NCBI GenBank assembly: GCA_037441385.1
Contig: JBBISH010000008.1
Location: 1-64,000, forward strand
Reading direction: 5' to 3'
Source: Myxococcales bacterium
GTDB lineage: Bacteria; Myxococcota_A; UBA9042
DNA: 64,000 nucleotides
Shown: positions 13,670-41,457 of the stretch, piece by piece
Position numbering within the stretch: the stretch's first letter is position 1
Layout of the letters: every line of letters begins with the position of its first letter
Notes under the pieces: model-generated
The model's database searches: none
The model's input: only the letters and a program-made list of their open reading frames with translations
What the model was told of the DNA's origin: nothing
Program-made: the position numbers and the translations under genes

Positions 13670-15505
13670 ATGGCGCAATCCACAACTGGGCAAACCGCCC
13701 AAGCCCCCAAAGACGGGCTGACCTCTGGCGAGCCCCAGCCCGCGCAGCGTCCGCGCGGCCAGGATTGGGCGCTGCTCAAGCGTTTTTGGGAGTTTGCGCG
13801 CCAAGACCGGCGCTGGCTGATCCTGGGGCTGCTGGGCCTGCCGGCGATGACCGGTGCGGGCCTGCTGCAGCCGTGGCTGATCAAGGTGGCGATCGACGGC
13901 CCGATCTCGGCCAGCGTCAAGGGCACCCAAGTGGCCGGACCGTGGACCCTGGGCACGGTTGCGGCGGTTTTCTTGGTGGCGGTCGTGGCCGAATACAGCT
14001 TTCGCGGCCTGCAGTTGTATGCCCTGCAAAAGCTGGGCTTCCGTGCCTTGGGCCGGCTGCGGCGAGCGGTGTTCGTGCACGTGCTGCGCCAGGGCGGTCG
14101 CTTTTTTGACACGCGCACCACCGGTTCGCTGCTGACCCGCACCACCACCGATGTCGAGGCCTTGGGCGAAGTCCTGACCATGGGCATCGTGGGGATCGTT
14201 GGCGATGTCATCGATATCGCAGCGATTATTGCGGTGATGGTGGCGCTGGACGTGAAGCTGACGGCCATGAGCATGCTGGTGGCACCGCTGATCGTGCTGG
14301 TGGTCAACTTCTTTCGGCGGCAACTGCGCAAGTATTCAAACGAAATTCGCCGAGCGATGGCGCAGTCCAGCGGCTACTACCAAGAAGCGCTGGCCGGCGC
14401 GCGCGTCATCCAGCTGCACGGCCGCCAGCAGACCACGCAAGACGAGTATCGCGAGCTGAACTACTCGTACTTGAACGCGTATCGCATCTCGAACATCTAC
14501 GACGCCAGCCTGTACGCCGTCATGGACGGGGTGGCTTCGCTGTGTATTGCGCTGCTCATCTGGTACGGCGGCGGTCGCGCGCTGCAAGGTGCGGTGACGG
14601 TTGGGCTTTTGGTGGCATTCATCCAGTACATCCAGCGGTTGTTCATCCCGATCCGCGAGCTGTCGGCCAAGGTGGCGACCATCGAGCGGGCGCTGGCAGC
14701 GCTCGAGCGCATCTTTGGCCTGCTCGACGTGCACGAGGAAGTGCGCGAAGGCCAGTTCGCCCCCGAACAGGTGAGGGGCGAAATCTGCCTGGACGCAGTG
14801 GATTTTGCCTACGACGGCAAGAACCTGGTGCTGCGCGGCGTGTCGTTGGAGATCGGGCCGGGACAGGTCCTGGCGCTGGTGGGGCCGACCGGATCGGGCA
14901 AGACCACGGTGGCCAAGCTGCTGACCCACATGTACGAACCGCCGGACGGCCGGGTGCGACTGGACGGCGTGCCGGTGGAGCAGTGGCAGGCGGGGGCGTT
15001 GCGGCGGGCGATTGGCGTGGTGCAGCAAGACGTGGTCGAGTTTTCGGGCAGTTTGTACGACAACGTGGACCTGGGCCGCGGGCTTGGGCGCGACCACGTC
15101 GCCCAGGCCCTGAACGACGCCTGCCTGGGCGATGTCGTCGAGCGCCTGGGCGGTATCGACGCGCAGCTGGGCGAGGGCGTGGCGCTGTCGGCCGGCGAGC
15201 GGCAGTTGCTGAGCGTGGCGCGCATCTTGGCCGCCAATCCTGCGGTAGTCGTGTTGGACGAGGCCACCGCGTCGATCGACTCGCTCACCGAACAGAAGCT
15301 GCAGCAGGCCATCGAACGGGTGCTGGCCGGCCGCACGGCGGTGGTGGTGGCGCACCGGCTGTCGACCATCCGCCGGGCCGACTGCATCGCCGTGTTGCGC
15401 CGCGGCGAGCTGGTCGAGAAGGGCAACCACGACGAGCTGATGCAGCTTGGCGGCCTGTATGCCGAGCTGGTCGCGTCGGCCGATCGCCAGGGTCATTTGG
15501 CGTAG
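13670..15505 (+). CDS. ABC exporter, fused permease/ATPase (MdlB/MsbA-like)
   Basis: TM domain, GPTGSGKT, LSAGERQ, VLDEAT, AHRLST. Confidence 0.93.
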   Translation: MAQSTTGQTAQAPKDGLTSGEPQPAQRPRGQDWALLKRFWEFARQDRRWLILGLLGLPAMTGAGLLQPWLIKVAIDGPISASVKGTQVAGPWTLGTVAAVFLVAVVAEYSFRGLQLYALQKLGFRALGRLRRAVFVHVLRQGGRFFDTRTTGSLLTRTTTDVEALGEVLTMGIVGIVGDVIDIAAIIAVMVALDVKLTAMSMLVAPLIVLVVNFFRRQLRKYSNEIRRAMAQSSGYYQEALAGARVIQLHGRQQTTQDEYRELNYSYLNAYRISNIYDASLYAVMDGVASLCIALLIWYGGGRALQGAVTVGLLVAFIQYIQRLFIPIRELSAKVATIERALAALERIFGLLDVHEEVREGQFAPEQVRGEICLDAVDFAYDGKNLVLRGVSLEIGPGQVLALVGPTGSGKTTVAKLLTHMYEPPDGRVRLDGVPVEQWQAGALRRAIGVVQQDVVEFSGSLYDNVDLGRGLGRDHVAQALNDACLGDVVERLGGIDAQLGEGVALSAGERQLLSVARILAANPAVVVLDEATASIDSLTEQKLQQAIERVLAGRTAVVVAHRLSTIRRADCIAVLRRGELVEKGNHDELMQLGGLYAELVASADRQGHLA

Positions 15506-20770: not shown

Positions 20771-22330
20771 CTATTTGAAGCAGTCGCTGTCGGGCAGCAA
20801 GCACGAGTCGCAGGTGCCGTCGCCATACTTGCCCGCGGCCTCGCACGAGTCTTGGCAAGTGCCGGTGGTCGCTCCCTGGGTCGCCGGGACGCAGCTCAAG
20901 CCGGGCAAGCAGGTGGCCGTGCCGATGCCGCAGTCCTTGCCCAGGCCCAGCGCCGGCAGGCACTTGGCGGTGGTCTGGCTCGCGTCGACGTACGAGCAGC
21001 CCAAGAAGGCCGCGCAGAAGCCGATGCCGTAGCCGCACTCGTCGCCGCTGAACTTGACGTCCATGCAGGTGCCGGTGGCCTTCGCGTCCGAGGAGTCGGG
21101 CACGCAGGTGGCAAAGCCGGCGCAATCGGTGGCGGTGCCAAAGTCGCCGCACTTGTCGCCCGCGCTGCCCAAGGCGTAGCACGAAGCGGACGACTTGGCG
21201 CTGGTGTCCCATACGCAGTCGGCGCCGTCGACGCAGCCGCCCAGGCCGTAGCCGCAAGCCGCGCCGGGGGCGCCGGCGGTTTGGCAGGTGCTGTTCGGGT
21301 CGGTGGCCGAGGTGGGGAAGCAGGTCAGCCCCGTCTTGCAGCCGCCCAGGCCGATGCCGCCGCACTGGGCGCCGGCGTTGCCGTTGGTGTAGCACTTGGC
21401 CGACGTCGCGGCCGTGCTGGTCCAGCCGCAGCTGCTGCCCGCCGCACACGTGCCAAACCCGTACTTGCCGCAGGCGCCGCCCAGGCTGACGTCGGCGTAG
21501 CACTTCATGGTGTTCTTGGTCTTGTCCGTAAAGCCGCAGGTCGAGCCGTCGGCGCAGTCACCCACGCCGGGGCCGCAGGTCTGGCCGGGGCTGCGCACGG
21601 TCTGGCAGATGTAGTCGCTCAGCTCGCCCGAGATGGCGCACTTGCTGCCGGCCGGGCAGCCGCTGTAGTTGCCAAAGCAGCTGCTGCCCACAGTCAGGGT
21701 GCCGCCGCCGCCCACGCACTGGCCGCTGGCGTTGCAGGTCTTGCTGCCCGAGCAGGTGCCGCACTTGCCGCCACAGCCGTCGTCGCCGCACTGCTTGTTG
21801 GCGCACTGCTTGGTGCAGGTGCCGCTTTTGCACAGCCCCTGCACGCAGTTGGGCGCCGCGGTGGGGCACTTGCCGCAGTTGCCGCCGCAGCCGTCGGCGC
21901 CGCACTCTTTGCCGTCGCATTGCGGCACGCAGCCGCCGTTGTCGGACTTGGCGCCATCCTTGTTGGCGATGATGAGGTCTTGGCCGCCGCCCGTCGAGTC
22001 GCCGCCGCTGGTCGCGTCCAGGCCGCCGCCGGTCGAGCTGGCCACGCAGATCGCCAGCTTCTTGACACCGGTGGGGTCGCTCCCGTCGTTCTGCACGTTG
22101 CAGTATTCATTGGCGGCGCACGGCCCCAAGTCCTTCCACACGTTGTTGTCGCACTGCACGCGATGTGCCGGCGCAATGCCCGTGTAGCAGCCCTGGTTGG
22201 CGTAGTTGCTGTCGCACACGGCGCCGGGCACTCCGCCGGGGAGCAGGGCGCCGCCGCCGCCACCACCGCCTCCGCTAGCGCCGCACGCCGCCACGATCAG
22301 GGCCAAACCAAGAAATGCCAGGTGCTTCAT
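20771..22330 (-). CDS. Cys-rich repeat lipoprotein (surface protein)
   Basis: IVAAC lipobox; CGxDGCGGxCGxC repeats, then about 8 repeats of G..CG.G...C..G..C. Confidence 0.85.
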   Translation of the reverse strand: MKHLAFLGLALIVAACGASGGGGGGGGALLPGGVPGAVCDSNYANQGCYTGIAPAHRVQCDNNVWKDLGPCAANEYCNVQNDGSDPTGVKKLAICVASSTGGGLDATSGGDSTGGGQDLIIANKDGAKSDNGGCVPQCDGKECGADGCGGNCGKCPTAAPNCVQGLCKSGTCTKQCANKQCGDDGCGGKCGTCSGSKTCNASGQCVGGGGTLTVGSSCFGNYSGCPAGSKCAISGELSDYICQTVRSPGQTCGPGVGDCADGSTCGFTDKTKNTMKCYADVSLGGACGKYGFGTCAAGSSCGWTSTAATSAKCYTNGNAGAQCGGIGLGGCKTGLTCFPTSATDPNSTCQTAGAPGAACGYGLGGCVDGADCVWDTSAKSSASCYALGSAGDKCGDFGTATDCAGFATCVPDSSDAKATGTCMDVKFSGDECGYGIGFCAAFLGCSYVDASQTTAKCLPALGLGKDCGIGTATCLPGLSCVPATQGATTGTCQDSCEAAGKYGDGTCDSCLLPDSDCFK

Positions 22331-22514: not shown

Positions 22515-24311
22515 CTAGCCCGGATTGAACACGAACGGCCACTGAATCACACACACGCCCGCTTCGGGCTTCATGAACTTGATGCGGCGGATGGTGCGCA
22601 GCACGCAGTCCGTCACCGACGAATTCTTCATGGTGTCGTCGACGATCTTGTCGTTGGCCACCGAGCCGTCGCCCGTGATCGTCCACTGCACCGTGACCTT
22701 GCCGCTGAGGTCAGGCTTGGCCATCAACTGGGTCTCGTAGCAGGCGCGCAAGCTGGCGGCGCGGGCGCGCACGTTCTTGCTGATGTCGCCCTTGTCGCAG
22801 CCGCCGGTCGAGTTGCCTTGGGCGATGTTGATCTTGGCCACCTTCTTGGCCGACTTGCGGCCGATGCCCATGTCGGCGTTGCGGCCCGTGCCGCCGCCAG
22901 TGTCGATCGCGCCCAGGCCGTGCAAGCGGCCATAGCCTTCGCCGCCGCCGCCCGAGCCCGTGCCGCGGAAGCCCATGCCGCCCGAGCCGTGGCCGATGAC
23001 GAGTTCGCCGCCTTCGCCCGACATCGCGACCGCCATCTTGCTGGAGATCGCGCCCGTGTCGCCGGCCATGATGTTGCCCAACGCGCCGGTCATGGCCTGC
23101 GGGCCGCCCAGCACCTTGGCGATACCGATGTTCTTGACGTCGACCTTGTCGCGCATCGGCCCGTCCATCTTGGGCACTTTGCTCTGCTTGTTCGGATCCT
23201 TGTCCGGATCGCCAAACTTGCCTTCTTCGCCGCCGGCCTTCTTGCCGGTGGTGTCTTCGTCCTCACCCTCGGGCTTGATCTCTTCGGGCTTCTCTTCTTC
23301 CTTTTGCTCCACGGCCACTTCGATGAGGCCGCGGTTTTTCTGCGCCAGTGCTTCGCTCTCGAGCCGGTCCTCGTCGCTCTTGGCGACCGAGTTCACGCCG
23401 ACGAACAGTACGAAGAAGATCGACATCACCGTCGCGAACGACACGGCGAGCGCGGCGTTGCGGGTGCGGTGAGTGCCGACCAGCGCGCCCGGTTGAGCGC
23501 CGGTGAAGTTGAAGTGCAGCTCGATGCCATTCTCGAACGAGATCACGCCCGAGTCGCCGCGGCTGATCGCGTGGCTGCCGCCCGCATCGACCTCGTTGCC
23601 GCCGATCTGGAGGCTACCCGTGGCGCCGTTGGGAACCGTGAGTTGGTACTGCTCGGCCGCGCCCGGCGTGAACAGAACGTGCGAATTGATGCCGTTGGCC
23701 GCCAACTGCAGGGTGTTCTTGTTGTCTTCGCCTACGGTGACGACCGTGGGGACGAAGAACACCTTTTCAGCCACCGTTTGATCGTTCCAGGCCAACGCCA
23801 CGCGCAAGAAGCGCTGGTCCTTGTGGTACTCGTCGAACGAGGCCACCGCCGTCAGGCCGCCAAAGAAGGCCAGCACCGAGCCGAAGACCAGCCAGATCAA
23901 GCCGTTGAGGTGCACATAGGTCTCTGGAATCAGCCCGCCCGACGCGTCGCAGAAGGCCAGCTCCATCGCCTTGCAGGGCACGAGCGTGTAGACCTGATCG
24001 TAGGTCAGCCAGGCCAGCACGATCTGGACCAGCCCGGCGGCGGCGATGCCCCAGCCGAACTTGCGCTTGCGCTGCTTGAAGATCAGCGCGCCCAGTGCCA
24101 CTGAAACCAGCGACAACAACAGCGAAACTTGACCTGTCCAGATCTGGAACCCGGCGATGCCTTTGTAGCCGAACTCTTCGACGTAGACAGCCGAGAACAG
24201 GTTGCGCCACGCCGACGGGTCGGCTTCGGCACCGCCGCCGCCCATGCCGAGGTTGGTGCCCAGCAGCGCGATCAGGCTGCCGATGATTGCTAAAATGGCT
24301 CCGCCGCTCAT
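22515..24311 (-). CDS. GltG-like protein (AgmX/PglI C-terminal TonB-C domain) with an extra N-terminal multi-TM module
   Basis: GGAG RBS; about 4 TM helices, beta-rich cytoplasmic domain, TM, KKAGGEEGKFG, Gly-rich GMGFRGTGSGGGG, LRACYE..GKVTVQWTI..CV..WPFVF. Confidence 0.75.
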   Translation of the reverse strand: MSGGAILAIIGSLIALLGTNLGMGGGGAEADPSAWRNLFSAVYVEEFGYKGIAGFQIWTGQVSLLLSLVSVALGALIFKQRKRKFGWGIAAAGLVQIVLAWLTYDQVYTLVPCKAMELAFCDASGGLIPETYVHLNGLIWLVFGSVLAFFGGLTAVASFDEYHKDQRFLRVALAWNDQTVAEKVFFVPTVVTVGEDNKNTLQLAANGINSHVLFTPGAAEQYQLTVPNGATGSLQIGGNEVDAGGSHAISRGDSGVISFENGIELHFNFTGAQPGALVGTHRTRNAALAVSFATVMSIFFVLFVGVNSVAKSDEDRLESEALAQKNRGLIEVAVEQKEEEKPEEIKPEGEDEDTTGKKAGGEEGKFGDPDKDPNKQSKVPKMDGPMRDKVDVKNIGIAKVLGGPQAMTGALGNIMAGDTGAISSKMAVAMSGEGGELVIGHGSGGMGFRGTGSGGGGEGYGRLHGLGAIDTGGGTGRNADMGIGRKSAKKVAKINIAQGNSTGGCDKGDISKNVRARAASLRACYETQLMAKPDLSGKVTVQWTITGDGSVANDKIVDDTMKNSSVTDCVLRTIRRIKFMKPEAGVCVIQWPFVFNPG

Positions 24312-24587
24312 GTTTCTCCACGCTCGGCCGACCCTGGATCGGCTCGGAGGGGCTGGGCCGGGCACGACCAAACTCAGGTCGCACCAAACCGGGCCGCGAT
24401 GCTAGTTTCGGGGCAACCCCCCGTCAAGCGCCCTTTGCAACTTGATTCGCTACCCCGGCAATTGAGCCCCGACGCGGGGCGGTGCCAGACCCCGGAGCCA
24501 GGCGCGGACCACCGGGTCACGACCATCGACGCGCCAAACGCGCGGGCGATCTACGCCCGGCCGCATGGGCATGATTTTTTCTGGCGC

Positions 24588-26780
24588 TCAGTCGCTGGCC
24601 GCGCTGGCAGGGGCCGCCATGTCTGCGGGCTGGCTGGAACTGGCAGTGCTATTCGTCAGTTCGATCGTCTCGCCGCGCTGCACGGCCGCTTCGGGCACCT
24701 GCGCACGCTGCAGGGCGCCGCAGCCGGCGCGGACCTCGACCACCCGCACGTCGCCGCGCCGACCTTCGGTGGACCAGGGCAGGCGCAGCGTCCACCGCCC
24801 GTTGGGCTCGCTCTGGCCGAACGCCAGCCAACGGTAGCCTTGATCGCCCACCTGCAGCAGCACTTCGGCCCGCGGGACCTGGCCGGTCGCACAGCCGCGC
24901 CCGGTCAGCACGGCCCCCGCCACTCGCTCGAATACCTTGGCCCGCTCGCCGGGCGTGGCGTGGAGCAGCCGCCACTCGGGCCTGGCGGCGCAGCGGCCGT
25001 CGGGGCTGGCGCTGCCGTTGGCGTAAAAAAGCACTTGAGCGTTGCTGCATTCCGCTTCGGCGGTCAGCTGGCGGCTGCCATCGGCGCCGTCGACGACGAA
25101 GCGATCGGCGGGCAGGCCGCGGGCGACGCCATAGGCCCGCAACGCCGCCCCAGGGACTTGCGTGGCGATCCAGTAGCGGATGCGGTGGCGCTGGACCAGC
25201 TGTGGACGATCGCCGGTGGCCAGGATCAGCTCGGCACAGGCGTCCAGGCCGCTGGTCTGGCCGGGGGCGATGAGCGGGCTGCAGACGTTGGCCTGCCCGC
25301 CCCACGCCAGCAGATCGTGGCCAAAGCCCCAGCCGGCCATCACCGCGTAGGTTGGCTTGCTGAGCGGGTTGTCCGCCGCACCGGCCGCGGGCGCGTGGAC
25401 CGCCAGCCAGTCCAACGCCTGCCAAACCGGGACCCGCCGCGCCAGCGGCAGCGGCCGGCTGGCCACGTCCGCCAGGCCAGGCAGCAGCGCTACGCCCGCG
25501 ATCGCGTAGGCCACGCCCGGCCGCACCTGCCGCTCGGCCACCTGCGCCAGCGCCGCCCCGGCCAACACGGCCAGCGGCACCGCCGACAGGGTCGCGAAAC
25601 GCTGTTGCAGCACCCCCAGCGCCACCCCAAGGGCCAGCGCGGCCGCCCATACCAGCACAGTTGGCCTTTGCCTGCGCTGGCGCAGCGCCCACAGCAGCAG
25701 CAGGGGCGTGGCAAGTGCGGGCCAGCTCAGCAGGCTCAGCGTCGCCGTCCATCCGTTTTCCGCGGCGGACGTCGACTCGGCGATGAGCGTCACATAGCCC
25801 TTGCCGGCGACGAAATCGCCCCCGCCGAACAGCGCCTGCCGCCCGGGCCCCCACACAGCCAGAACCAGCGCCGCCACGGCCAGTCCCTGTAGGGCCGACC
25901 ACGCCCGGCCCCGCCCGCCCGGCTGCGGCCGGATCCCCATCGCCAGCAGCGCCGCCGCCGCCATCGCCAGCAACCCTGGCTGCAGCATCGACAAGCCCTC
26001 GGCAACCACGGCGCCGCCTTGCCCCAGGGGCGACGCCGACGCCAGGGGCACCGCCAGTACGCCGGCCGCGCCAAAAACGAGCGCAAGCCGGCGCGAAAAC
26101 GCGCACCGCTGCTCGGCTTCGCTGACGAGGAGCGCGACGCCAGCCCACCCCGCCAGCAGGGCCACGGTCAGCGCCGACGACGGCCACAGGACCAACGGTG
26201 CCATCACCAGGCCGATCGCCCACGCCTGCTGCCCAATTCGGGCCGGCCTCTGCACGGCGAGCAGCGCGGCCAGGGCCGCGAAGGTGACCAACGGCTCGGC
26301 GGCGTGGTGGTCGATCTTGCCGACTTGCGTGTAATTGTGCAGGCCTGGGTGGCAGGCGACGAGCAGCCCGGCCACGGCCATCGCCCGCAGCCGGTGCGCG
26401 TCGTTCGCCAGCTTGCCAGCCACTTGAGCCGCCACCACCGTGGTGGCTACCGCGCAAGCGGTCACCAGGCCATAGCCCGCCCACAGCGCCGCGTTGCGAT
26501 CGCCGCCCAGCGCGGCCGCCGCCGCCGCGCACAAAGCATCGAACCCGTCTGGCCACACGACCCAGTTGCCGACCGGCACGTGGACCCAGGCGTCCTTGTG
26601 CAGGGGCCCGTGGCCTTGGGCCTGCCACAGCATCCGCCGCACGTGGTACCACGAGTCGCCGCTGACCGCGAACCAGCGGTCCCCCCAGTGCAAATCGGAC
26701 AAATTGCGCAGGCGCAGCCCGGCCGTCAACGCGGCCAACAGCAGCAAAAGGAGCCGCGGCGGCACGGCCTTGCGCAGCAT
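24588..26780 (-). CDS. STT3/AglB-like oligosaccharyltransferase (GT-C)
   Basis: GDSWYHVRR, DHHAAE, TLIAES (TIxE), VMAGWGFGH at the WWDYG position, KVFERVAGA; about 13 TM helices. Confidence 0.8.
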   Translation of the reverse strand: MLRKAVPPRLLLLLLAALTAGLRLRNLSDLHWGDRWFAVSGDSWYHVRRMLWQAQGHGPLHKDAWVHVPVGNWVVWPDGFDALCAAAAAALGGDRNAALWAGYGLVTACAVATTVVAAQVAGKLANDAHRLRAMAVAGLLVACHPGLHNYTQVGKIDHHAAEPLVTFAALAALLAVQRPARIGQQAWAIGLVMAPLVLWPSSALTVALLAGWAGVALLVSEAEQRCAFSRRLALVFGAAGVLAVPLASASPLGQGGAVVAEGLSMLQPGLLAMAAAALLAMGIRPQPGGRGRAWSALQGLAVAALVLAVWGPGRQALFGGGDFVAGKGYVTLIAESTSAAENGWTATLSLLSWPALATPLLLLWALRQRRQRPTVLVWAAALALGVALGVLQQRFATLSAVPLAVLAGAALAQVAERQVRPGVAYAIAGVALLPGLADVASRPLPLARRVPVWQALDWLAVHAPAAGAADNPLSKPTYAVMAGWGFGHDLLAWGGQANVCSPLIAPGQTSGLDACAELILATGDRPQLVQRHRIRYWIATQVPGAALRAYGVARGLPADRFVVDGADGSRQLTAEAECSNAQVLFYANGSASPDGRCAARPEWRLLHATPGERAKVFERVAGAVLTGRGCATGQVPRAEVLLQVGDQGYRWLAFGQSEPNGRWTLRLPWSTEGRRGDVRVVEVRAGCGALQRAQVPEAAVQRGETIELTNSTASSSQPADMAAPASAASD

Positions 26781-26783
26781 CGG

Positions 26784-27713
26784 CTACTCCGAGACTTCGT
26801 ACGGCACCAGCAGCACCACGCTGGCTGAGACCATCGCCGCGTGATCACCCGCCGCGTCCACACCGCCGCCCAAGTCCACGCCCACCTTGGTGGTCCGCCA
26901 CGACAGGCCGCCGCAGACCCAGTGGTGGGTGGCCGCGCCGCGCACGATCTGATCGAACTGATAGCCGGCGCGCAGTTGCAGGCCCTCGGCGCCGACCTGG
27001 TAGCCCACGCCAGCGCGGTAACTTTGGCCGTCAGCATCGCCGGCCAAGGCCACGTCGCGGTTGGCCACGCCCCACGATCCGGACACTTCGGCCACCAGCT
27101 GCGAGCCCACAAAGGCCGCGCCGACGGCCACCCGCCGCGGCGCCTCGCGCGGGTCCAGTGCCAGGCCGTTGTGGATGACCGCGCCCAGTCGCACGCTCTG
27201 CAGCCCGACCGTCACGCCCAGATCGCCCGTCCAGCCGTCTACGCTGTGGCTGCCTTGGCTGAGGTTCAAGTAGCGGGCCGAGGCGCCGAGCAGCAACCGG
27301 CTGGTCTCGCTTTGGCCGCCCATGCTCAGGCCCATGCGCACGTCGTGGCCACGGCGGTTGGGGGCGTCGGTCGACCAGCCGAGCTCGCTGGCATAGCCCA
27401 CGCCGGCCGCCAAGCCCCAGGCCGAGGTCGAGTCCACGTAGCTGACAAAGGGCGCCCCCGAGCCCGCCTGGCCAGAGCGGGCGAAACCCGCCTCGAAGAC
27501 CGAGTGTTGCACCTGGCTCATGCCGGCCGGATTGCTGTACAGCGCTGCCCCGGCCACGCCCGAGGCCACCTGGGCATCGGCCGTTCCCAACGAGGTGGTC
27601 CCCGCGCCGGCCGGCCGGTAGGGCCCCATGCCGCACAGCACGCACCAGGCGCCGGCAGCTACCATCCATTTCCACAAGCGTTGCAGGCTCATGCGCTCCC
27701 TAGCGGCGGTCAC
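26784..27713 (-). CDS. Outer-membrane beta-barrel protein (FadL/PorV-like N-terminus)
   Basis: Signal peptide, SLGTADAQVA..ALYSNPAGM motif, alternating amphipathic strands. Confidence 0.65.
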   Translation of the reverse strand: MTAARERMSLQRLWKWMVAAGAWCVLCGMGPYRPAGAGTTSLGTADAQVASGVAGAALYSNPAGMSQVQHSVFEAGFARSGQAGSGAPFVSYVDSTSAWGLAAGVGYASELGWSTDAPNRRGHDVRMGLSMGGQSETSRLLLGASARYLNLSQGSHSVDGWTGDLGVTVGLQSVRLGAVIHNGLALDPREAPRRVAVGAAFVGSQLVAEVSGSWGVANRDVALAGDADGQSYRAGVGYQVGAEGLQLRAGYQFDQIVRGAATHHWVCGGLSWRTTKVGVDLGGGVDAAGDHAAMVSASVVLLVPYEVSE

Positions 27714-28387
27714 GAAGTCTTCTTGTCCGCGGCCTTCTTCATGCGCGCGATCAGGCCCGACCAGCCCTCTTTGCCCAGGATCTTAGCAAAGTTTTGCCGG
27801 TACGACTGCACCTGGCTGGCGTCGTCGACCACGATGTCGAACACCCACCAGCGGCCATCGCCCGGCAGCAACTGGTAGTTCACGTCGGCGCTGGTGGTCT
27901 TGACCTTGAGCACCGTCTGCACCTCGCTGCGGCCGCCGGGTAGGCTGCGGGTCTGCTTGTACGTGATCTCGACGGGCGTGCCGGGCTTGAAGCGCTTGAC
28001 GTAGGTGTTGATCACCATCCGCGTCAGCAGTTGGGTGAACTCGGTCCGCTGCTCGGGCTGCAGGCCATCCCATTGTCCGGGCAGGGTCAGCTTGGCCATC
28101 TCGGCAAAGTCGATGACGCCGTGGAGCTCGTCGCCAATCGCCTTGTGCAACGCCGCAACATCGCTGGTCGCCTTGGACTGCTGATCCAGCTTGGCCGACA
28201 GCCCGGCGATGAATTTCTGCGGATCCCCGGCTGGCTTCTTGGGGCCCGCACTCGGCGCCGGAGCGGCAGGGGTGGCCGGGGCCGCGGCTGGCGGATTGGC
28301 TGGCTTGGCCGCCTTGGGTGCCGCAGCGGCGGGCACGGCAAACAGCGCAACCAGGCAACCCACAACAAGCTTACTCAAATGGGACAT
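27710..28387 (-). CDS. MlaC/Ttg2D(HpnM)-family lipid-binding periplasmic protein
   Basis: IDFAEMAKLTL..W, EFTQLL, WWVFDIVVDDASQVQSYRQNF. Confidence 0.9.
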   Translation of the reverse strand: MSHLSKLVVGCLVALFAVPAAAAPKAAKPANPPAAAPATPAAPAPSAGPKKPAGDPQKFIAGLSAKLDQQSKATSDVAALHKAIGDELHGVIDFAEMAKLTLPGQWDGLQPEQRTEFTQLLTRMVINTYVKRFKPGTPVEITYKQTRSLPGGRSEVQTVLKVKTTSADVNYQLLPGDGRWWVFDIVVDDASQVQSYRQNFAKILGKEGWSGLIARMKKAADKKTS

Positions 28388-28455
28388 GATCTTCCTTGAA
28401 CCCGCCTGCGCCGCCATGGCGCATGCCGATGCAACGCCCGCGAGGGCTCACTCAT

Positions 28456-29892
28456 TCAGGGGCCGGGCTGCGCCAGTTGGGTCAGGTCCATGCCGACCGC
28501 CCGCGACAGCGCCGCCACCGCCACGTTGTAGTTGAAGATCGACTCGGCGTAGGCCATGCGCCGGCGCGTGTAGGCCTCCATGGCGCGCAGCACCTCGGCA
28601 AACTCTTGGAAGCCGTCTTCGTAGGCTTGATTCTCGGCCGAGAGCCAACCGCGGGCCGACTTGTAGGCGCGCTCTTGCACGTCGATCATGGCGCGCGCGT
28701 CGACCATTTCGCGGTACATCTGCCGCACTTCCATTCGCACTTTGGCTTGCTCGCCTTTTTCGAGCAGCGCCGCCTGCTTGGCGTCTAGATCCGCCTGATC
28801 GATCTTTTCGAGCTGCCGCAGCGGATCGACGCTCCAGCGCAGCGCCACGCCCAAGCCGGACGTGGCCGAATTGTTGGGGTTGGTGGCCAACGAGTCCTGC
28901 GTATCCGCCCGGGTCGGGGCGTACGTATAGGCATAGCGCGCCACCAGCACGAAATCCGGCAAGAACTGGTTTCGCGCCAACTGGGCTTGCATCAAGCGAA
29001 CTTGTACGCCACCGCGCTGGGCCAGCAACCGCGGCGAGTTGGCCAGCGCCAGGGTCTCGATCGCCTCCATGGGCACGGTCGGTACCACGACGGGGGTCAG
29101 ATCGCCGGCCGCCTCCACCGGCAATTCGGACGATTCGCCCAGCGCCATGCGCAGGCCATCTTCGGCCTGACCGCGCGATCGCTCGAACTGCCGCACTTTC
29201 TCTTCGATGTCGGCCGAGAACACGTTCAGCTTGGCCAGGTCGGCCTGGTTGAAGCTCGCGTCGCCATCGTCGCGGGCTTTTTCAATCTTCTCGCGCTGTT
29301 CTTGCATCAGCCGCTTGCCGTCGGCGACCAGGTCGCGCAGCTCGGCGACCAGCACCAGGCCCCACCACGCTCGGGCCAGCTGGTAGCGCATCTCGTCTTC
29401 GGCGATGTGGATCGTGACGCGGGCGATGTCCACGCCCTGGCGCGCCATGTCCTTGAGCGTCGAGATCTTGCCAAAGGTGAACAAGGTCTGGCCCATGCTC
29501 ACCGAGGTGACTAGCAGCGGCCCAAACTTGGTGAAGTCGTAGTCTTGCAGCGGCGTGGCGCCGTCGTGGCCCGGCTTCAGCTCGGGCAGGGCCGTACCAA
29601 AAGCGCTGATGTCGAACTTGGGGTACCACGCCGACTGAGCCTCGCGCAGCCTGCTCTCGTACTGGGGCACGCCGAGCCGAGCGGCGGCCAGCAACGGCGA
29701 CTGACGCTTGGCCAGGTGCTGACACTCTTCCAGAGTGCAGCGCAGCTTGGGCGGGGCCGCGAGCGCGCTGGGCTGGACCGCGCCCACCGCCAGACTGGCT
29801 AGCGCTACCGCCATCGCGTGGCCAAGCCGGAGCCTGGCCCAAGGCCAGCGAGCCGTGCGCAACCGAGCCTGATTCAACAGAGAGTCCGCCAT
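28456..29892 (-). CDS. TolC-family outer-membrane protein
   Basis: Two OEP repeats (WYPKF..QTLFTFGK; ALANSP..FLPDF; YNVAVAALSRAVG). Confidence 0.88.
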   Translation of the reverse strand: MADSLLNQARLRTARWPWARLRLGHAMAVALASLAVGAVQPSALAAPPKLRCTLEECQHLAKRQSPLLAAARLGVPQYESRLREAQSAWYPKFDISAFGTALPELKPGHDGATPLQDYDFTKFGPLLVTSVSMGQTLFTFGKISTLKDMARQGVDIARVTIHIAEDEMRYQLARAWWGLVLVAELRDLVADGKRLMQEQREKIEKARDDGDASFNQADLAKLNVFSADIEEKVRQFERSRGQAEDGLRMALGESSELPVEAAGDLTPVVVPTVPMEAIETLALANSPRLLAQRGGVQVRLMQAQLARNQFLPDFVLVARYAYTYAPTRADTQDSLATNPNNSATSGLGVALRWSVDPLRQLEKIDQADLDAKQAALLEKGEQAKVRMEVRQMYREMVDARAMIDVQERAYKSARGWLSAENQAYEDGFQEFAEVLRAMEAYTRRRMAYAESIFNYNVAVAALSRAVGMDLTQLAQPGP

Positions 29893-29895
29893 GAT

Positions 29896-31389
29896 CTAGA
29901 ACCCCGACTTGAGCGGCACGCGGTCGACGGTGTGTGCCAATAGGTTCCAGGCGGCCAGGTAGGCCCCCTCGGCGCCCAAGCCGCAGAAGCTCGCGTCCCC
30001 GCCGATGAGGACGTTCTTGTAGCCGGTCGTGGTCGCCAGCGGGCTGGTGCCCACGGTGTGGGCGATGGCCTCGCCGTAGCCCGGCTGCAATTCACCTGGG
30101 TCGATGTCTTCGGCGCCGTCTTCGCCGCGTTGCAGCCACGGCGTGTGGCGGTGCAACAGGTGTTCGCCCAAGAAGGGCAGCGTGTCTTCGATGCGCTTTT
30201 GCAGGCGGTCCAGCAGCATGCGTGCGGCCGGCGCACCGCCCGAGGCCACGCTGATCGGCACGCGCATCGCCGCCGAAATCAGGCGCACTTCGCGATCGTC
30301 GGCGCTGGTCCCAATGTCGGCGTCGCGGGCGATGTGGATCAGGTTATCCTCTTCCAACGACTGGCTGAGATCGGCCACGGCGAACACGTGGCGCGCCATC
30401 GCCTCGGGCACGGCGCGGGCGCGCACCACGAAATTGCCCACAAAGGTGTGGCAGATCGGCTGCAGCGTGTGCAAGACGTGGTGGTACTCCTCGTTCTGCT
30501 GCTCTTGTGGGATCAGCGTTGCAAAGCGTTTGGGGTCCATGTTGCAGACCACCATGTCGCAGCTGATCACTTCGCGGCGGTCGCGCAGGACCACGCTTTG
30601 GGCCTTGCCGCGGTGCACCTGGATCGACGACACCACCGCCCGCGGCCGCACGTCGCCCGAGGTCTGGATGATCGACGAGAACAAGTCGCGCAGCGCGTTG
30701 GGGCCGCGATCAAAAACCGCGGTGCCGCGCCACAGTTCGGTGACGGCGCGCACGAAGGTAGCCGGGTAGGGCCGCGCCGGTACCATCCCTGAGACGAAGC
30801 GAAACGGCGCCTGCACAAACGCGCGGAACGGGTGGCCGTGGGCAAAGCGCGCCAGCGGATCTTCCAGCGCCCACTCGTCTTCCAGGATCGGGTATTTCTT
30901 GACCAGCGAGCGGAAGCGGAACGTCTCGACCAGACCCGTGGGCGGCAGCACCGGGCGCACCTTCAGCACTTCGTCGACCTGGCCGTCGATCTCGCTGACA
31001 CGGCGGAAGAACACGCCGATCTCCGAGTCGAGGCCGGGGAATTCGCGGCGCAGCTCGCGCTCGAGCAGGCGCGGCTCGGTGCCCACGTTGATGCGCGCCT
31101 TGGGCAGCACCACCTGGAACGAAGGCTCTAGCGGCCGTGGCAGGTTGCGCAGCTCCAGGCCCAGGCTCAGCTCGTCAAAGACCCGCCGCGCCGCCAGCGA
31201 GCTGAGTGCGTAATTCAAGTCCAGGCGCCGGCACAGCGTGTAGCCTTGGTGCTCGTACAGTGCGCCGCTGCTGCCGTGCGCCACGACCAACACGCGGTAA
31301 CCTCGCTTGGCGCAAAGCGCTCCGTAGATCAGCCCGGCGAGATCCGTGCCGATGACCACGACGCTGTAGTGGGAAGAGACCTGGCTCAC
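29896..31389 (-). CDS. Phytoene-dehydrogenase-like flavoprotein-fold protein
   Basis: VVVIGTDLAG..LCAKRGYRVLVV N-terminus; C-terminal TGYKNVLIGGDASFCGLGAEG. Confidence 0.7.
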   Translation of the reverse strand: MSQVSSHYSVVVIGTDLAGLIYGALCAKRGYRVLVVAHGSSGALYEHQGYTLCRRLDLNYALSSLAARRVFDELSLGLELRNLPRPLEPSFQVVLPKARINVGTEPRLLERELRREFPGLDSEIGVFFRRVSEIDGQVDEVLKVRPVLPPTGLVETFRFRSLVKKYPILEDEWALEDPLARFAHGHPFRAFVQAPFRFVSGMVPARPYPATFVRAVTELWRGTAVFDRGPNALRDLFSSIIQTSGDVRPRAVVSSIQVHRGKAQSVVLRDRREVISCDMVVCNMDPKRFATLIPQEQQNEEYHHVLHTLQPICHTFVGNFVVRARAVPEAMARHVFAVADLSQSLEEDNLIHIARDADIGTSADDREVRLISAAMRVPISVASGGAPAARMLLDRLQKRIEDTLPFLGEHLLHRHTPWLQRGEDGAEDIDPGELQPGYGEAIAHTVGTSPLATTTGYKNVLIGGDASFCGLGAEGAYLAAWNLLAHTVDRVPLKSGF

Positions 31390-31518
31390 GCGACCCGCAC
31401 GCCACCTCCACCACCTGGAGCGGCGGGCGCAAGCCTAGCGCAACAGGGCCTGCGGCGCCATTGCCGGGCCGGGCTTGCGCTGCCGGTGCGCCCAGGTAGG
31501 CTTTCCGCGAGGCAAGGG

Positions 31519-32925
31519 ATGCAAAGCGGACAGCGACACGCGGGGCAGGGCAGCAAGTGGGCTCCACCGCTGCTCGTCGCCGCTGTGTGGTTGGCGAGCA
31601 CGTGGGCCGCGCATCACTTGGGGTTGGCCATGCAGGTCGACCTGGGCCGCATGTGGCAGGCGCTCGATCTGGACGAGCTGCGCCGCAACCTGGGCCCGAG
31701 CTTGTGGTATCAGCACAGCCAGCCGCCGCTGTGGAACCTGTTCCTGGGGTCGCTGCTGAAGTTGGGGATCGACCCCAGCGCGCCGGTTGTCCACGGCCTG
31801 TTTGACGGGATCGGGCTGGCCATCGGTCTGCTCACCTGGCGCGTCGCGGTGGAACTGGGCGCGGATCGCGGGTGGGCCGCGTTGGCCGCAAGCCTGCTGC
31901 TCGCATCCCCAGGTTTCACTCTGACGATTCACTGGTTGTTCTACGACGGGCCGGTCACGCTGGTGGTGCTGGTACTCGTTTTGAGCCTGGCGTCCGCGGC
32001 CCACCGCCCCGACTTGCCGCGCCTGATCCTGCTGGCCCTGGCGGCGGCGGGTCTGGTCTGGCTACGAAGTGCCTTTCATCTTGCTTGGTTGCTTGGCCTG
32101 CTCGCGCTGGTGGGCGTGGACCGGTCGCTGCCACGTCGGCGCCTCCTTGGGGCGTTGGCGGCGGCGCTGGTGCTGGCAACCCTGCCGTTTGCCAAGAATG
32201 CGGTGGTGTTTGGCACATTTGCCTCCAGCTCGTGGGCGGGGATGAGCGCTCAGCGCCTGACCAAGACCATGCTCAGTGGCGCGGAGGTGCACACTCAAGT
32301 TGCTGCCAGACGGCTGGCGCCGGTGACCGCGGTGGGGCCGTTCCAGCCGCTGGAGCGCTACGGACCGGTTGCACCGGTGCCGGACCAGTTCGCGCCGATC
32401 GCCGTGCTCAGCGCTGCCCACAAAGCGAGCGGCGAGACCAACTTCAACCACTACGCCTACCTGGAGCTGTCGCGGACGATGGCGCGCGACGCGCTACGGC
32501 TGGTTTTTCGGCATCCCGGCGCCTACTTGCGTGCCCACGCCGCCGCGTGGCTGCAGTGGCTGCGCCCGGCGGCTTTGGATACCAACCTGGGCGAGGGCCG
32601 CCGTGTGCTCCGACCGTGGGTCGATGGCTGGGATCAGTATTTGCTTTTGGATGTGGGCCAGGTCTGGCTGCTGCTGGCGATCGGGGCGCTGCTGGCGCTG
32701 GCGCTGCTGGTCGATCGACTGCGGCCGACCACGGTGGCCCAGCTGCCGGCCCCGCAACGGGCGCTGTGGCGGGCCGCCGCGTGGACCACGCTGTGGATCA
32801 CTCTGCTGGGCAACGCCGTGGAGTATGGCGAAAACTATCGCTTTCGCGGCTACATCGACCCGCTGTTGCTCGCGACCTTGGCTGTGGCGGCGACCCAGTT
32901 GCGATCCCGCTTGCGCAGGCCGTGA
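31519..32925 (+). CDS. Polytopic membrane protein, probable GT-C (ArnT/PMT-like) glycosyltransferase
   Basis: HSQPPLWNLF loop, WLFYD, multiple TM helices, GENYRFR near the C-terminus; start approximate. Confidence 0.6.
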   Translation: MQSGQRHAGQGSKWAPPLLVAAVWLASTWAAHHLGLAMQVDLGRMWQALDLDELRRNLGPSLWYQHSQPPLWNLFLGSLLKLGIDPSAPVVHGLFDGIGLAIGLLTWRVAVELGADRGWAALAASLLLASPGFTLTIHWLFYDGPVTLVVLVLVLSLASAAHRPDLPRLILLALAAAGLVWLRSAFHLAWLLGLLALVGVDRSLPRRRLLGALAAALVLATLPFAKNAVVFGTFASSSWAGMSAQRLTKTMLSGAEVHTQVAARRLAPVTAVGPFQPLERYGPVAPVPDQFAPIAVLSAAHKASGETNFNHYAYLELSRTMARDALRLVFRHPGAYLRAHAAAWLQWLRPAALDTNLGEGRRVLRPWVDGWDQYLLLDVGQVWLLLAIGALLALALLVDRLRPTTVAQLPAPQRALWRAAAWTTLWITLLGNAVEYGENYRFRGYIDPLLLATLAVAATQLRSRLRRP

Positions 32926-33996: not shown

Positions 33997-35034
33997 TCAC
34001 GGCGTAAACAGGTACCACCAGGCCGGGAAGGGCAACGGGTCGCCGTCGCCGCCGATCTTCAGCTCGCCATCGGCCGCCACGCCGCTCTCGCTTACCACGC
34101 CGTGGGCGCTGCCAAACGCGCCCAGGCCGGCCACGGGCGACCAGCTGGTCCCCAGGCCCAGGGCAATCCAGTTGGCCGAAATCACATCGAAATCACTTGC
34201 CGTCTTGTTGGCCAGACCAAACCACTGGCTGGCGGGAGTCTGCGCCGAGCTGGCGATCCAGGCCGCTGGACCTTGGGCCGTGCTATCGGTCGGCCCTTGG
34301 AGCAGCACCGCCCGCGACACTTTGCGCACCTTGGCGATAAAGCCCGCGTGGCCGGCGCCCTCGCCATGGCCGACGATCACAATGTCTTGCCAAAGCGGCG
34401 TGCTGCCCGCCACAAAGTTGCCCCAGCCCTGGCCCGGGCGGTGCTTGGCCAGCCACTGCAGCGCCAACGCCAGGCGCTGTTCGATGCAGTTGTTGAAACC
34501 GACTTTGACTTTGTCGCTGCGGTCCTGGCCGTCCAGCACCTCGTGGCGTACGTACTCGTAGCAGGTGCTGCTTTGGCCGCACAGGCTGGCCGTGCTGGGA
34601 TTGGCGGGGTAGGCCAGGCCCAAGACGCGGTGGCCACGCTGCGCAGCGGTCCACAGGATCTTGCTGTAGTCCTTGGGTTGCATGCCGGTGTCGGGCAGCA
34701 GCACCACCAACTCGCCGCTGCTGGGCACCTGGGCATCAAAGATGGCCAGATGGTCGCCAAACTCGCCGCTCACGCCGGTTTGGGTATTGGTGGCCGGCAC
34801 AAAGCTGTCCACCGCGTCCGAATTGGGGGCTGCCGCTGTGTCTTCTGCGGATCCGGCCATGTCCCCAGTGGCTGTGTCGGCCCCGGTGGTTCCGCTGTCG
34901 GCCGTAAGCGAGGTGGCCGAACTCGTGCCCGGCGTGGGCACAGGGTTGACGACGCAGCCGCCTTGGCCCAGGAGCAGGAGCACCATGAGCCAAAATGCCG
35001 CGCAGGTTGGGCGGCGTGCGAGCGGTGCGATCAT
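33997..35034 (-). CDS. Alpha/beta-hydrolase-fold lipoprotein (BPSS1187-like), nucleophile Ser absent
   Basis: GGC-VVNPVPTP lipoprotein start; RGHRVLGLAYP, VGHGEGAGHA, WWYLF; start approximate. Confidence 0.7.
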   Translation of the reverse strand: MIAPLARRPTCAAFWLMVLLLLGQGGCVVNPVPTPGTSSATSLTADSGTTGADTATGDMAGSAEDTAAAPNSDAVDSFVPATNTQTGVSGEFGDHLAIFDAQVPSSGELVVLLPDTGMQPKDYSKILWTAAQRGHRVLGLAYPANPSTASLCGQSSTCYEYVRHEVLDGQDRSDKVKVGFNNCIEQRLALALQWLAKHRPGQGWGNFVAGSTPLWQDIVIVGHGEGAGHAGFIAKVRKVSRAVLLQGPTDSTAQGPAAWIASSAQTPASQWFGLANKTASDFDVISANWIALGLGTSWSPVAGLGAFGSAHGVVSESGVAADGELKIGGDGDPLPFPAWWYLFTP

Positions 35035-36938
35035 GGCGAATCCCCTGCGGCTGACTCAGCAACCTCTGCCGATTCTGCCAGTTTCACCCCCAGGTCGCCA
35101 GTTGACTGGGTTGCCGGCAGACCTGCCTTGGCATCGCTCACCCGGTGGATCTGCGAGCGACGGCGGTCGCCAAACAGGGCCCCCGGCGGCCGGCGCGGCA
35201 GTTCGACGACAAACCGCGCACCCCCCAAGCTGGGGCTACGCTCGACCCGCACGCGTCCGTCGTGGGCTTTGACGTGGCGCGCCACCGTGGCCAAGCCAAG
35301 GCCGGTACCCTGCGCGCCTTTGGTCGTATAGAACGGCTCGAAAATGCGGTCGTTGTCGCTGGGATCGATGCCTGGGCCGCTGTCGTCGACCGCCAGTTCC
35401 AGCCACTCGCTCTCGCTGCGCAGGCTGACCATCACGCTGCGTTGCTCCACCTCTTGCACGGCATGGGTCGCGTTGATCAGCAGGTTCCACATCACCTGCC
35501 TGATCAGCGCGGCGTCGCCGACGAGAGTCCAGTTCGCGCCTGGGCTGCTCAACGCTTGCGGCGGCGGCACCTGCACGCCCGTCGCCGCCACCGAAGGGCT
35601 TTGCACGCACGACTGCACCGTCTCGCTGGCCAGACTCAGCAAGTCCAGTTCGCCAAACTGCACAGGGCGTGGTCGGGCGAAATCCAAGAATTCGCCAATC
35701 CATTCACTCAGCTGACTGGTTTCACGCACCACGATCCCCATCAGCATGCGCTCGCTCTCGTCCAGCCCGCTGGCCGTCTGCAGCATTTGCACGGCGCCCG
35801 AGATCGACGCCAGCGGGTTGCGAATCTCGTGGGCCACCGCCGACGCCAGCGAACCCACCGTGGCCAGGCGCTCGCGCGAGCGGTGTTCCTCTTCGCGGGC
35901 CCGCACTTCGGTCACGTCGCGCAGCACCAGCACCCGCCCCCATTTCCCGCCGGGATCGCGCAGCGGTGCCACGCGCACGGCCAGCATTTGCGCCTTGCCA
36001 CCCGCGGATTTGCGGGCAATCTGCTGGGTCGAGTGAATGTTCTGCGGCTCGGGGCGCGCCAGCTCCCACTCGCCGGGCGGCCCCGCCAGGGCCTGCTCGA
36101 TCTCGGGCACGGTTGTCGCCAAGGGCCGGCCCAGCAGTTGCTGCCGCTCGAGGCGCAGGATCATCTCGGCCGCCGGATTGGCCGCCGTGACCAAACCGTT
36201 GGGTCCCACTGTGACCAACCCGTCCGGCAAGCTGGTGACCACGTCTTCGTAGTGGACGCGCAGACTTGCCAGCTCACTCCGCTGTTGCTGGGCGCGTCGG
36301 CGGGCTCGTTCCAGCTCGCGCACTAGGTGCGACGCCAGCACGGACGTGGCATAGGCGGCGGCGATCTGGAGCGCCAGGTTGCTGGCAATCTCGAACGGCG
36401 TGGGGGTCTTGACCGCAGGCAGCGCCGACAGATACGCCACGCGCAGCCGCGGCAGCTCGATCCAGCCCACCTCGTCCAGCGACATCGCCACCATACCCAC
36501 GCCGATCGCCGTGGCCGACAAGAGCGAGCCCACACGGTTCAGCAGGATCGCGGCGTTCAGCACGGCCAGCGGCAGGCCGAACAGGAACAAGCTCTGCATG
36601 CCGCCGGTGGCGTGCACCAAGAACAGCGCTAGTACCTCGTCCAGCAGAACCGAGGTCCACGTCAAGCGAACTAGAAACGAATTGTGATTGTGGCCCAACT
36701 GCGCCAGCAGCAGTAAAAGGAAACTGACGCCATAGGCCACGGCGGCCAGTTGGTAGAGCAGGGTCTCGGGCGCCGCGGTGGCCTTCTGCGGCGCCATGCC
36801 CAGGTCGACGGCCACGGCAAAGGCCAACACCCCGGTGATCACCAGCACGCGCGCCAGGGTTGTCCATTTCAGGCGGTCGACCAGCGTGTCGTCCGTCAAC
36901 GGCAAGTCGCCAACGCCGGCCTGTTCCGGATGGGCCAT
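35031..36938 (-). CDS. pilS: PilS-type sensor histidine kinase (TM + PAS + HisKA + HATPase)
   Basis: AHEIRNPL, NLLINA, DSGPG, FYTTK, GTGLGL; follows pilC. Confidence 0.88.
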   Translation of the reverse strand: MAHPEQAGVGDLPLTDDTLVDRLKWTTLARVLVITGVLAFAVAVDLGMAPQKATAAPETLLYQLAAVAYGVSFLLLLLAQLGHNHNSFLVRLTWTSVLLDEVLALFLVHATGGMQSLFLFGLPLAVLNAAILLNRVGSLLSATAIGVGMVAMSLDEVGWIELPRLRVAYLSALPAVKTPTPFEIASNLALQIAAAYATSVLASHLVRELERARRRAQQQRSELASLRVHYEDVVTSLPDGLVTVGPNGLVTAANPAAEMILRLERQQLLGRPLATTVPEIEQALAGPPGEWELARPEPQNIHSTQQIARKSAGGKAQMLAVRVAPLRDPGGKWGRVLVLRDVTEVRAREEEHRSRERLATVGSLASAVAHEIRNPLASISGAVQMLQTASGLDESERMLMGIVVRETSQLSEWIGEFLDFARPRPVQFGELDLLSLASETVQSCVQSPSVAATGVQVPPPQALSSPGANWTLVGDAALIRQVMWNLLINATHAVQEVEQRSVMVSLRSESEWLELAVDDSGPGIDPSDNDRIFEPFYTTKGAQGTGLGLATVARHVKAHDGRVRVERSPSLGGARFVVELPRRPPGALFGDRRRSQIHRVSDAKAGLPATQSTGDLGVKLAESAEVAESAAGDSP

Positions 36939-36944
36939 GGCCGC

Positions 36945-38153: not shown

Positions 38154-38184
38154 CGTGCACCCCTACTCTTTCGCCAGAAAGCCA

Positions 38185-39924: not shown

Positions 39925-40165
39925 GGGCTTGAACCTCGGCAACTACGGCGCGCCGCCGGCCCTTGGGCTGGCCAACCGGCGGCCTGGGAGCCCGGCAGTG
40001 GGCAACACGACAAAGCCGCCCGACCAACTCGGTGGACGGCGTCATCGCTCACACCGTAGCAGATGATGCGAAATCCGCAATCGCGCGAGACCCGGTCGCA
40101 CGTGCCCGTCCCATCCGTGGGCAGCGCAACCGGGGACCGTCGAAGTGGCGAATGGTCAAGAAGTT

Positions 40166-41329: not shown

Positions 41330-41457
41330 GGGATTCTCCGCAGCGTGCGCCGCCGCTGGGCCCAAAGTATGCCACGGTTCGCACAATGTCGCGCTTCGCC
41401 GTCAAGAGTCCTGGGATTGACCGGGGTGCCGCCGCCCCAGGGCGCGATCGACCGTGC

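Follow-up and report, generated by a model that had tools for sequence, protein, structure and literature searches.

Can an oligosaccharyltransferase (OST) scaffold remain a working enzyme after losing the motif with which it reads its acceptor, and, if so, what would it glycosylate? The question is raised by a 730-amino-acid (aa) STT3/AglB-like protein (P0001) encoded in a 64,000-nucleotide (nt) stretch of a Myxococcales bacterium (contig JBBISH010000008.1, positions 1 to 64,000), which we refer to as the window. To our knowledge, all characterized STT3, AglB and PglB enzymes read the Ser or Thr at position +2 of the N-X-S/T sequon through a WWD triplet, a motif treated as universal; in OSTs the Ser/Thr pocket is completed by a DK (DxxK) or MI (MxxI) motif. 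A first-pass annotation had described the protein as an archaeal-AglB-type STT3-family enzyme whose WWDYG position reads GWGFG, and had proposed that it serves a different acceptor. Our analysis bears out the classification and the motif change. From sequence comparison and a predicted structure, we lean towards a catalytically competent, single-subunit glycosyltransferase of the inner membrane with a GT-C (glycosyltransferase C) fold, descended from archaeal-type AglB and carrying a remodelled acceptor pocket.

To place the protein, we combined profile searches with structure prediction. Its sole Pfam match was AglB_L1 (PF18079) at residues 622-706, with an expectation value (E) of 3.4e-7 and 30.7 bits against a cutoff of 23.6, and the NCBIfam model for archaeosortase-associated STT3 proteins, TIGR04154, matched at E 1.9e-33. 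A single-protein phmmer search of the PDB returned weak matches only (E 0.002); a profile of 19 homologues scored against all PDB sequences retrieved Archaeoglobus fulgidus AglB chains exclusively, the best being 5gmy (E 9e-24), covered over residues 12-627 and 766-867. The AlphaFold2 model built from the alignment of these 19 homologues reached a predicted local distance difference test (pLDDT) value of 88.8 and a predicted template-modelling (TM) score of 0.87, with confidence dropping at residues 320-350, where OSTs carry their flexible fifth external loop. It displays the GT-C fold, in which a periplasmic alpha-beta domain follows a membrane domain of many helices, and retains both the large periplasmic domain and the acceptor-clamping loop. 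Foldseek against the PDB ranked A. fulgidus AglB first (7e9s; TM 0.75, E 2e-22, identity about 16%), followed by eukaryotic STT3 (TM 0.50-0.61), DPY19 (0.51-0.53), PglB (0.47-0.51) and ArnT (0.29-0.32), the top matches all being AglB, STT3 or PglB structures. The host is bacterial: neighbouring genes include TolC-like, MlaC-like and GltG/AgmX-like ones, and all 11 related loci come from Myxococcota or 'Deltaproteobacteria' records of metagenome-assembled genomes. These sequence and model comparisons identify the protein as a bacterial member of the STT3 superfamily, of AglB type.

The equivalence of the individual motifs was established by alignment rather than by recall. In HMMER alignments with the long-type A. 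fulgidus enzyme, AfAglB-L (5gmy/3waj), SGDSWYH lies opposite GGNDPWYY (D47), GKIDHH opposite GFNDHH (D161/H163), (L)I(A)E opposite TIAE (E360), Q-RF opposite QNRFA, and KVFERVAGAV opposite KIFERVKGAV. The residues that form the divalent-metal site of AglB (D42, D157, H159 and E335 here) and those that hold its donor phosphate (H158 and R394) are thereby all kept, as is the TIXE-type loop. The first-pass description of the DSWYH, DHHxxE and TLIAE motifs as intact, and of the C-terminal KVFE motif as AglB-like, was thus correct, positions included. At the acceptor-reading site AGWGFGHDL stands opposite SWWDYGHWI, and a motif scan of the whole protein found neither a WW dipeptide nor WWD anywhere in its 730 aa, which rules out a misaligned or hidden WWD elsewhere. 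Nor is a DxxK evident opposite the DK region of AfAglB, where METGKYYA aligns with GAALRAYG and R548 falls one position off K618. According to a review covering these motifs, WWD hydrogen-bonds the +2 hydroxyl of the sequon, a conserved Arg (R375 in PglB, R404 in yeast) binds the donor pyrophosphate in OSTs, and the catalytic Asp, Glu and Arg have described roles in AglB and PglB (PMC7226087).

Next, we followed these positions through the family. A word-indexed search yielded 19 homologues at 36-80% identity plus four distant ones, and a second search with a diverse 28-sequence alignment yielded at least 33 proteins with little new taxonomy. Scored against 1.84 billion cluster representatives, the 19-homologue profile matched 3226 proteins at E <= 0.001, 1960 at E <= 1e-10 and 651 at E <= 1e-30. 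The best 150 of the 3226 matches and the earlier homologues made up a set of 164 full-length proteins (five of 169 fell short of 600 aa and were left out); family-wide counts refer to this set, whose matches took their rank from a profile without WWD and were inspected for the best 150 only. In 19/19 aligned close homologues the WWDYGH position reads x-W-(G/S/A)-(F/Y/L/I)-G-H, and D42, D157, H158, H159, E335 and R394 are invariant among them. In a FastTree tree, midpoint-rooted and built without archaeal references or outgroup, the STT3-like protein belongs to a clade of 26 members (local support 100%), each of which carries x-W-(small)-x-G-H-(D/E): the first Trp has become G, S or P, the Asp of WWD has become G, S or A and is retained by 0/26, and W484, G487 and H488 are each present in 26/26. 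The clade signature further comprises an invariant Asp or Glu at residue 489, one helical turn past the lost Asp, and N-V-C/A-S-P-L-I-A-P after the motif.

Across the 164 proteins, the first position of WWDYGH is Trp in 2, the second is Trp in 154, the third is Asp in 33, the fifth is Gly in 163 and the sixth is His in 133, and complete WWD occurs in two (P0100, P0167). The catalytic residues behave quite differently: D42 and D157 are each present in 164/164 (26/26 in the clade, 138/138 in wider relatives), H159 in 157/164, E335 in 160/164 (26/26 and 134/138) and R394 in 161/164 (26/26 and 135/138). On the tree, the Asp state at the third position needs 25 changes among 28 rows, so this Asp is not under constraint in the bacterial family. 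Canonical motifs turn up among more distant matches (WWDYGH in P0176, WWDQGY in P0178). Judged by these alignments, the altered motif is characteristic of a large bacterial family of AglB-like proteins, which conserve W(2), G(5) and H(6) of WWDYGH and no other position of it. The change noticed at first pass is real and conserved, though not peculiar to this gene; it is neither chance nor a sequencing defect, since it recurs in 19/19 homologues and in 11/11 related loci with intact open reading frames (ORFs).

The gene is also maintained. Its ORF is intact in 12/12 loci (the window and 11 related ones), with the same motifs in the 11 representative-genome loci, and comparison with each of the two nearest orthologues gives a Nei-Gojobori ratio of nonsynonymous to synonymous substitution rates (dN/dS) of 0.225 and 0.231. 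It is under purifying selection, weaker than that on its cassette neighbours described below. The two outcomes named in advance as speaking against the first-pass reading, a lack of any STT3 match and orthologues with WWD next to a decaying copy, were not obtained.

How would such an enzyme work? In the reading towards which we lean, it would work on the outer face of the inner membrane, where its donor would be a glycan carried on polyprenyl (undecaprenyl) phosphate or pyrophosphate. With the flexible loop closed over the acceptor, the glycan would pass to a nucleophile positioned between D42 and E335. Because the pocket for the +2 Ser/Thr is remodelled, canonical N-X-S/T reading would not be possible. 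The likeliest acceptor, which we name tentatively from the sequence, would be the carboxamide of Asn in envelope proteins, chosen by another or a looser determinant; an amide is favoured because the amide-activating Asp/Glu pair is strictly kept. The enzyme's job would be tied to the outer-membrane and lipid-traffic cassette in which its gene lies, whose gene products or carried lipid would be the obvious candidate targets. The automatic labels 'asparagine N-glycosylation enzyme Stt3' and 'dolichyl-diphosphooligosaccharide-protein glycosyltransferase' exceed the evidence.

The nearest characterized system is the archaeal single-subunit N-oligosaccharyltransferase AfAglB-L (PDB 3WAJ, 3WAK, 5GMY, 7E9S), both the best structural match and the only solved family reached by profile. 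The two share the first-loop Asp, D-H-H, the TIxE Glu, the Q-RF Arg, the G-H of WWDYGH and the K-FERV-GA domain; they differ in that WWD is G-W-G here, that a Val lies opposite AfAglB H81, that the protein has 730 aa rather than 868-875, and that the host is a bacterium, in which undecaprenol would take the place of dolichol as carrier lipid. Campylobacter PglB (3RCE, 5OGL, 6GXC) resembles it in GT-C fold, catalytic Asp and Glu, donor-binding Arg, single-subunit form and periplasm-facing orientation, but it is a weaker structural match, has no profile match at E 0.01, possesses WWDYG and MxxI, and lies in a pgl cluster, whereas the STT3-like gene lacks WWDYG and shows neither an evident MxxI nor a pgl cluster in the window. 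Eukaryotic STT3 (6S7O, 6S7T, 6EZN, 8AGE) shares the fold and catalytic layout but works in a multi-subunit complex, has WWDYG and a DK motif, and lacks the AglB_L1 domain. DPY19, which C-mannosylates Trp, and ArnT, which acts on lipid A, share the superfamily fold and take their sugars from polyprenyl-phosphate donors, yet are much more distant and lack the AglB-specific C-terminal units; they show that a GT-C scaffold can change its acceptor class.

The true family of the protein lies among the bacterial 'STT3 domain-containing' or AglB_core-like proteins of Myxococcota, Acidobacteriota, Geobacteraceae and others, within which the 26-member clade stands apart by its own signature and its link to an envelope cassette. 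Source records name members 'STT3 domain-containing protein' (Myxococcota, Geobacteraceae), and neighbouring Atlas clusters are mostly from Myxococcota, Acidobacteriota and Poribacteria and carry AglB_L1, STT3 and AglB_core-like domains. Full-text literature searches, which left subscription journals outside their coverage, found no description of the clade or of WWD-less STT3 homologues, nor a functional test of any family member. Where Lombard (2016) touches on such sequences, no more than 'a few bacterial homologues' are mentioned; they fall within euryarchaeal AglB and are attributed to transfer from archaea to bacteria (PMC4973528).

Table 1 Positions of the STT3-like gene, its motifs and the genes of its cassette in the window
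Feature	Position (nt)	Strand	Evidence
STT3/AglB-like GT-C glycosyltransferase (P0001), 730 aa	24588..26780	-	ORF; AglB_L1 and TIGR04154 matches; AfAglB profile match; AlphaFold2 model; Foldseek
DSWYH, first-loop catalytic/metal-binding Asp D42 (AfAglB D47)	26643..26657	-	HMMER alignments
DHHAAE, D157-H158-H159 (AfAglB D161-H162-H163; metal and phosphate site)	26295..26312	-	Profile alignment
TLIAE, TIXE-type motif (flexible fifth external loop) with catalytic Glu E335	25776..25790	-	Profile alignment
QQRF, R394 opposite AfAglB QNRFA (donor-phosphate Arg)	25596..25607	-	Profile alignment
GWGFGH at the WWDYGH position; next residue D489, the clade-invariant acid	25317..25334	-	HMMER alignments
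KVFERVAGA, start of the C-terminal peripheral beta domain	24912..24938	-	AfAglB alignment
C-terminal peripheral beta domain, AglB 'long' type	24663..24938	-	Pfam AglB_L1; aligns with AfAglB 766-867
CrtD-like oxidoreductase using flavin adenine dinucleotide (phytoene-desaturase family), first cassette gene	29896..31389	-	TIGR02733, E 1.6e-14, below cutoff
TolC-family outer-membrane efflux protein	28456..29892	-	Pfam OEP, E 4.8e-38; TIGR01844, below cutoff
MlaC/HpnM-like periplasmic lipid-binding protein with Ala/Pro/Lys-rich N-terminal linker	27710..28417	-	Pfam MlaC, E 4.9e-33; TIGR03481 (HpnM), 4e-21, below cutoff
Putative PorV/PorQ-like outer-membrane barrel, 309 aa (lead only)	26784..27713	-	Weak NCBIfam PorV2 match, E 0.0044; Atlas neighbour cluster named PorV/PorQ

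The STT3-like gene closes a compact run of five genes on the minus strand, which encode in order the CrtD-like, TolC-like, MlaC-like, PorV-like and STT3-like proteins (Table 1). As judged by tblastn, this order is kept in 8/12 loci: the window, L001, L002, L003, L004, L006 (cut by a contig end), L007 and L009; for L008 the upstream sequence is too short for a call. The distance from the stop of the barrel gene to the start of the STT3-like gene is 3 nt in six loci including the window, a 4-nt overlap in one and 40 nt in another. Cassette-free loci fall in the P0015/P0016 subclade and at P0019, and members with the cassette occur on either side of the deepest split within an 18-member inner clade, so the linkage looks ancestral in that clade, with a later loss in one lineage. 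Between the STT3-like gene and the GltG-like gene downstream there is a promoter-like site. The putative barrel itself was modelled poorly from an eight-sequence alignment (mean pLDDT 46.7), too low for a fold search, and N-x-S/T occurs at one site in 3/8 of its orthologues only, leaving no conserved sequon.

Two further cassette members deserve a description of their own. The CrtD-like gene, whose homologues are named 'phytoene dehydrogenase-like protein' in source records, has the lowest dN/dS of the cassette (0.03-0.05) and 97% identity to its L001 counterpart; its product had no PDB match at E 0.01, and its translation carries at residues 10-20 a dinucleotide-binding motif, G-T-D-L-A-G, with Asp at the second Gly of GxGxxG. 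Close relatives of the CrtD-like protein are more numerous, 64 at E <= 1e-20, which hints that the other four cassette genes may also occur in the absence of the STT3-like gene. In all eight MlaC-like orthologues compared (the window, L001-L004, L006, L007 and L009), a low-complexity linker rich in Ala, Pro, Lys and Thr separates the signal peptide from the MlaC domain; it is conserved by composition and not by sequence. Such Ala/Pro-rich linkers are typical targets of bacterial O-glycosylation.

Several observations weigh against an active transferase with a remodelled pocket. The protein is a divergent member of its family: the Pfam STT3 model PF02516 gives no match to it at E <= 1, so that family membership rests on the other evidence above (PF02516 is precomputed on 9/19 close homologues, those at E <= 3.1e-85), and the TIGR04154 match scores 115.9 bits against a cutoff of 450. 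Evolution is faster in the STT3-like gene (dN/dS 0.23) than in the rest of the cassette (0.03-0.14). The link to the cassette is not obligatory, as the cassette is absent beside the STT3-like gene in 3/11 loci (L005, L010, L011). No glycan-assembly genes were found by Pfam and NCBIfam scans of the 43 ORFs in the window, and the donor pathway is accordingly not in evidence there; the earlier remark that no pgl genes are adjacent thus extends to all 64 kb. The sole candidate glycan-related gene in the window encodes an MsbA/PglK-type ATP-binding cassette transporter (13670-15505) 9 kb away. Near other family members, the only glycosyltransferase seen is a convergent gene of glycosyltransferase family 4, downstream and on the opposite strand in L004 (12427-13701, minus strand) and L009 (14282-15493, minus strand).

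The pocket itself also bears on this reading. An Asp or Glu at residue 489, four residues past the lost Asp, is found in 26/26 clade members versus 10/138 proteins outside, and because residues 484-493 are modelled as a helix, residue 489 would share a helix face with residue 485. This acid may reposition a carboxylate in the pocket and partly restore it. The idea rests on helix geometry in a predicted secondary structure, and the acid arose once, in one clade, so that it offers no statistical covariation.

Among the alternatives, we first considered that the sugar or glycan is moved to a non-protein acceptor, an envelope lipid or glycolipid handled by the MlaC-like, PorV-like and TolC-like proteins; the GT-C enzyme ArnT, which modifies lipid A, provides the analogy. 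The position of the gene at the end of a lipid-binding and outer-membrane cassette in 8/12 loci, its near-zero gap to the barrel gene, the clade-wide dismantling of the peptide Ser/Thr pocket and the lack of a conserved sequon in the barrel would all suit such a role. We nevertheless regard it as unlikely: fold and motifs are far nearer AglB (TM 0.75) than ArnT (0.29-0.32), the amide-activating Asp/Glu pair and the TIXE loop are strictly kept, and the cassette link is missing in 3/11 loci. We also know of no STT3-family enzyme with a lipid acceptor.

The protein might instead be an ordinary N-X-S/T N-oligosaccharyltransferase that reads the +2 hydroxyl with W484, the relocated acid at residue 489 and the basic R548 near the DK position. 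W484 and the acid are invariant in the clade, the latter at i+4 from the lost Asp on the predicted helix; Arg is found at 548, one residue from the alignment position of AfAglB K618, in 20/26 members; and the remaining OST motifs are all kept. However, two of the three WWD residues are small or absent in 26/26 members, and 99/138 wider members miss both Asp485 and an acid at 489. Sequon reading by these substitutes is thus quite improbable.

A third possibility is that the protein acts mainly as a hydrolase of lipid-linked glycans, freeing oligosaccharide into the periplasm with water as acceptor, which is a side activity of PglB, AglB and STT3. Full conservation of donor-side and metal-site residues alongside loss of the peptide-reading ones would fit such an enzyme, yet the periplasmic domain and the acceptor-clamping loop are retained and confidently modelled, and no osmoregulation or glycan genes appeared nearby in the window scans; we consider it very unlikely. 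That the protein is what remains of a horizontally acquired AglB, decaying or no longer catalytic, as the faster evolution of the gene and the missing Pfam STT3 match might suggest, is effectively ruled out by ORFs intact in 12/12 loci, a dN/dS of 0.23, catalytic residues invariant across 36-80% identity and the conserved tight junction with the barrel gene.

The preferred reading, an active transferase with a remodelled acceptor pocket, can be widened to the whole family, although in this form it is rather doubtful: a large bacterial radiation of AglB-derived GT-C enzymes would have given up N-X-S/T reading, and the Myxococcota clade would glycosylate an outer-membrane component. The target could then be a protein of the cassette modified away from any sequon, be it the co-translated PorV-like barrel or another, or else a lipid that the MlaC-like protein carries. 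If true, this radiation would represent a new class of periplasmic glycosylation on the OST scaffold. A conserved lineage without WWD suggests that this scaffold may pick Asn sites by another rule, which would be of use in glycoengineering of sequon-free sites, or alternatively that it has been recruited to a different class of acceptor; the conserved coupling to an outer-membrane and lipid-traffic cassette supplies concrete candidate targets.

Beyond the cassette, the genes on either side were also surveyed. Immediately downstream, at 22515-24371 (minus strand), lies a GltG/AgmX-like protein with a myxobacterial AgmX/PglI C-terminal domain; it is 97% identical to its L001 orthologue, compared with 77% for the adjacent STT3-like protein. 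Divergent from the cassette, a multi-pass membrane protein of about 490-559 aa is encoded at 31246-32925 (plus strand), with a likely true start near 31462. It had no NCBIfam match, no Pfam match at E 5 and no meaningful PDB match, was found only in the two closest loci, and evolves as fast as the STT3-like gene (dN/dS 0.19-0.26); its 'SQPPLW' stretch presumably resembles ArnT/PMT-type GT-C enzymes. A Kyte-Doolittle helix count attempted for the STT3-like protein gave overlapping segments and was discarded.

Type IV pilus-type genes occupy 35031-39942 (minus strand), 8-13 kb from the STT3-like gene, and encode a PilS-like kinase, a T2SSF/PilC-like protein and a T2SSE/PilB-like ATPase. Their synteny is confined to the closest relatives, the PilS-like kinase being present in L001 and L002. 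Archaeal AglB glycosylates pilins. Farther along, a gene at 40166-41386 (minus strand) combines a peptidoglycan-binding domain with a domain of the Tae4 family of type VI secretion amidase effectors, and no type VI secretion genes were seen near it. The window also holds two large Cys/Gly-rich secreted repeat proteins, at 20771-22330 (minus strand) and 55390-57465 (plus strand); the first had no family match in Pfam or NCBIfam, the second carries Dicty_CTDC and MopE-type motifs, and both regions contain long antisense ORFs typical of high-GC DNA. Among the related loci, L005 (12518-14167, minus strand) and L008 (2729-4381, minus strand) share a convergent gene of about 550 aa, without family match, followed by one for a HEAT-repeat protein, and this pair may be an alternative conserved neighbourhood of the STT3-like gene in the L005/L008 subclade.

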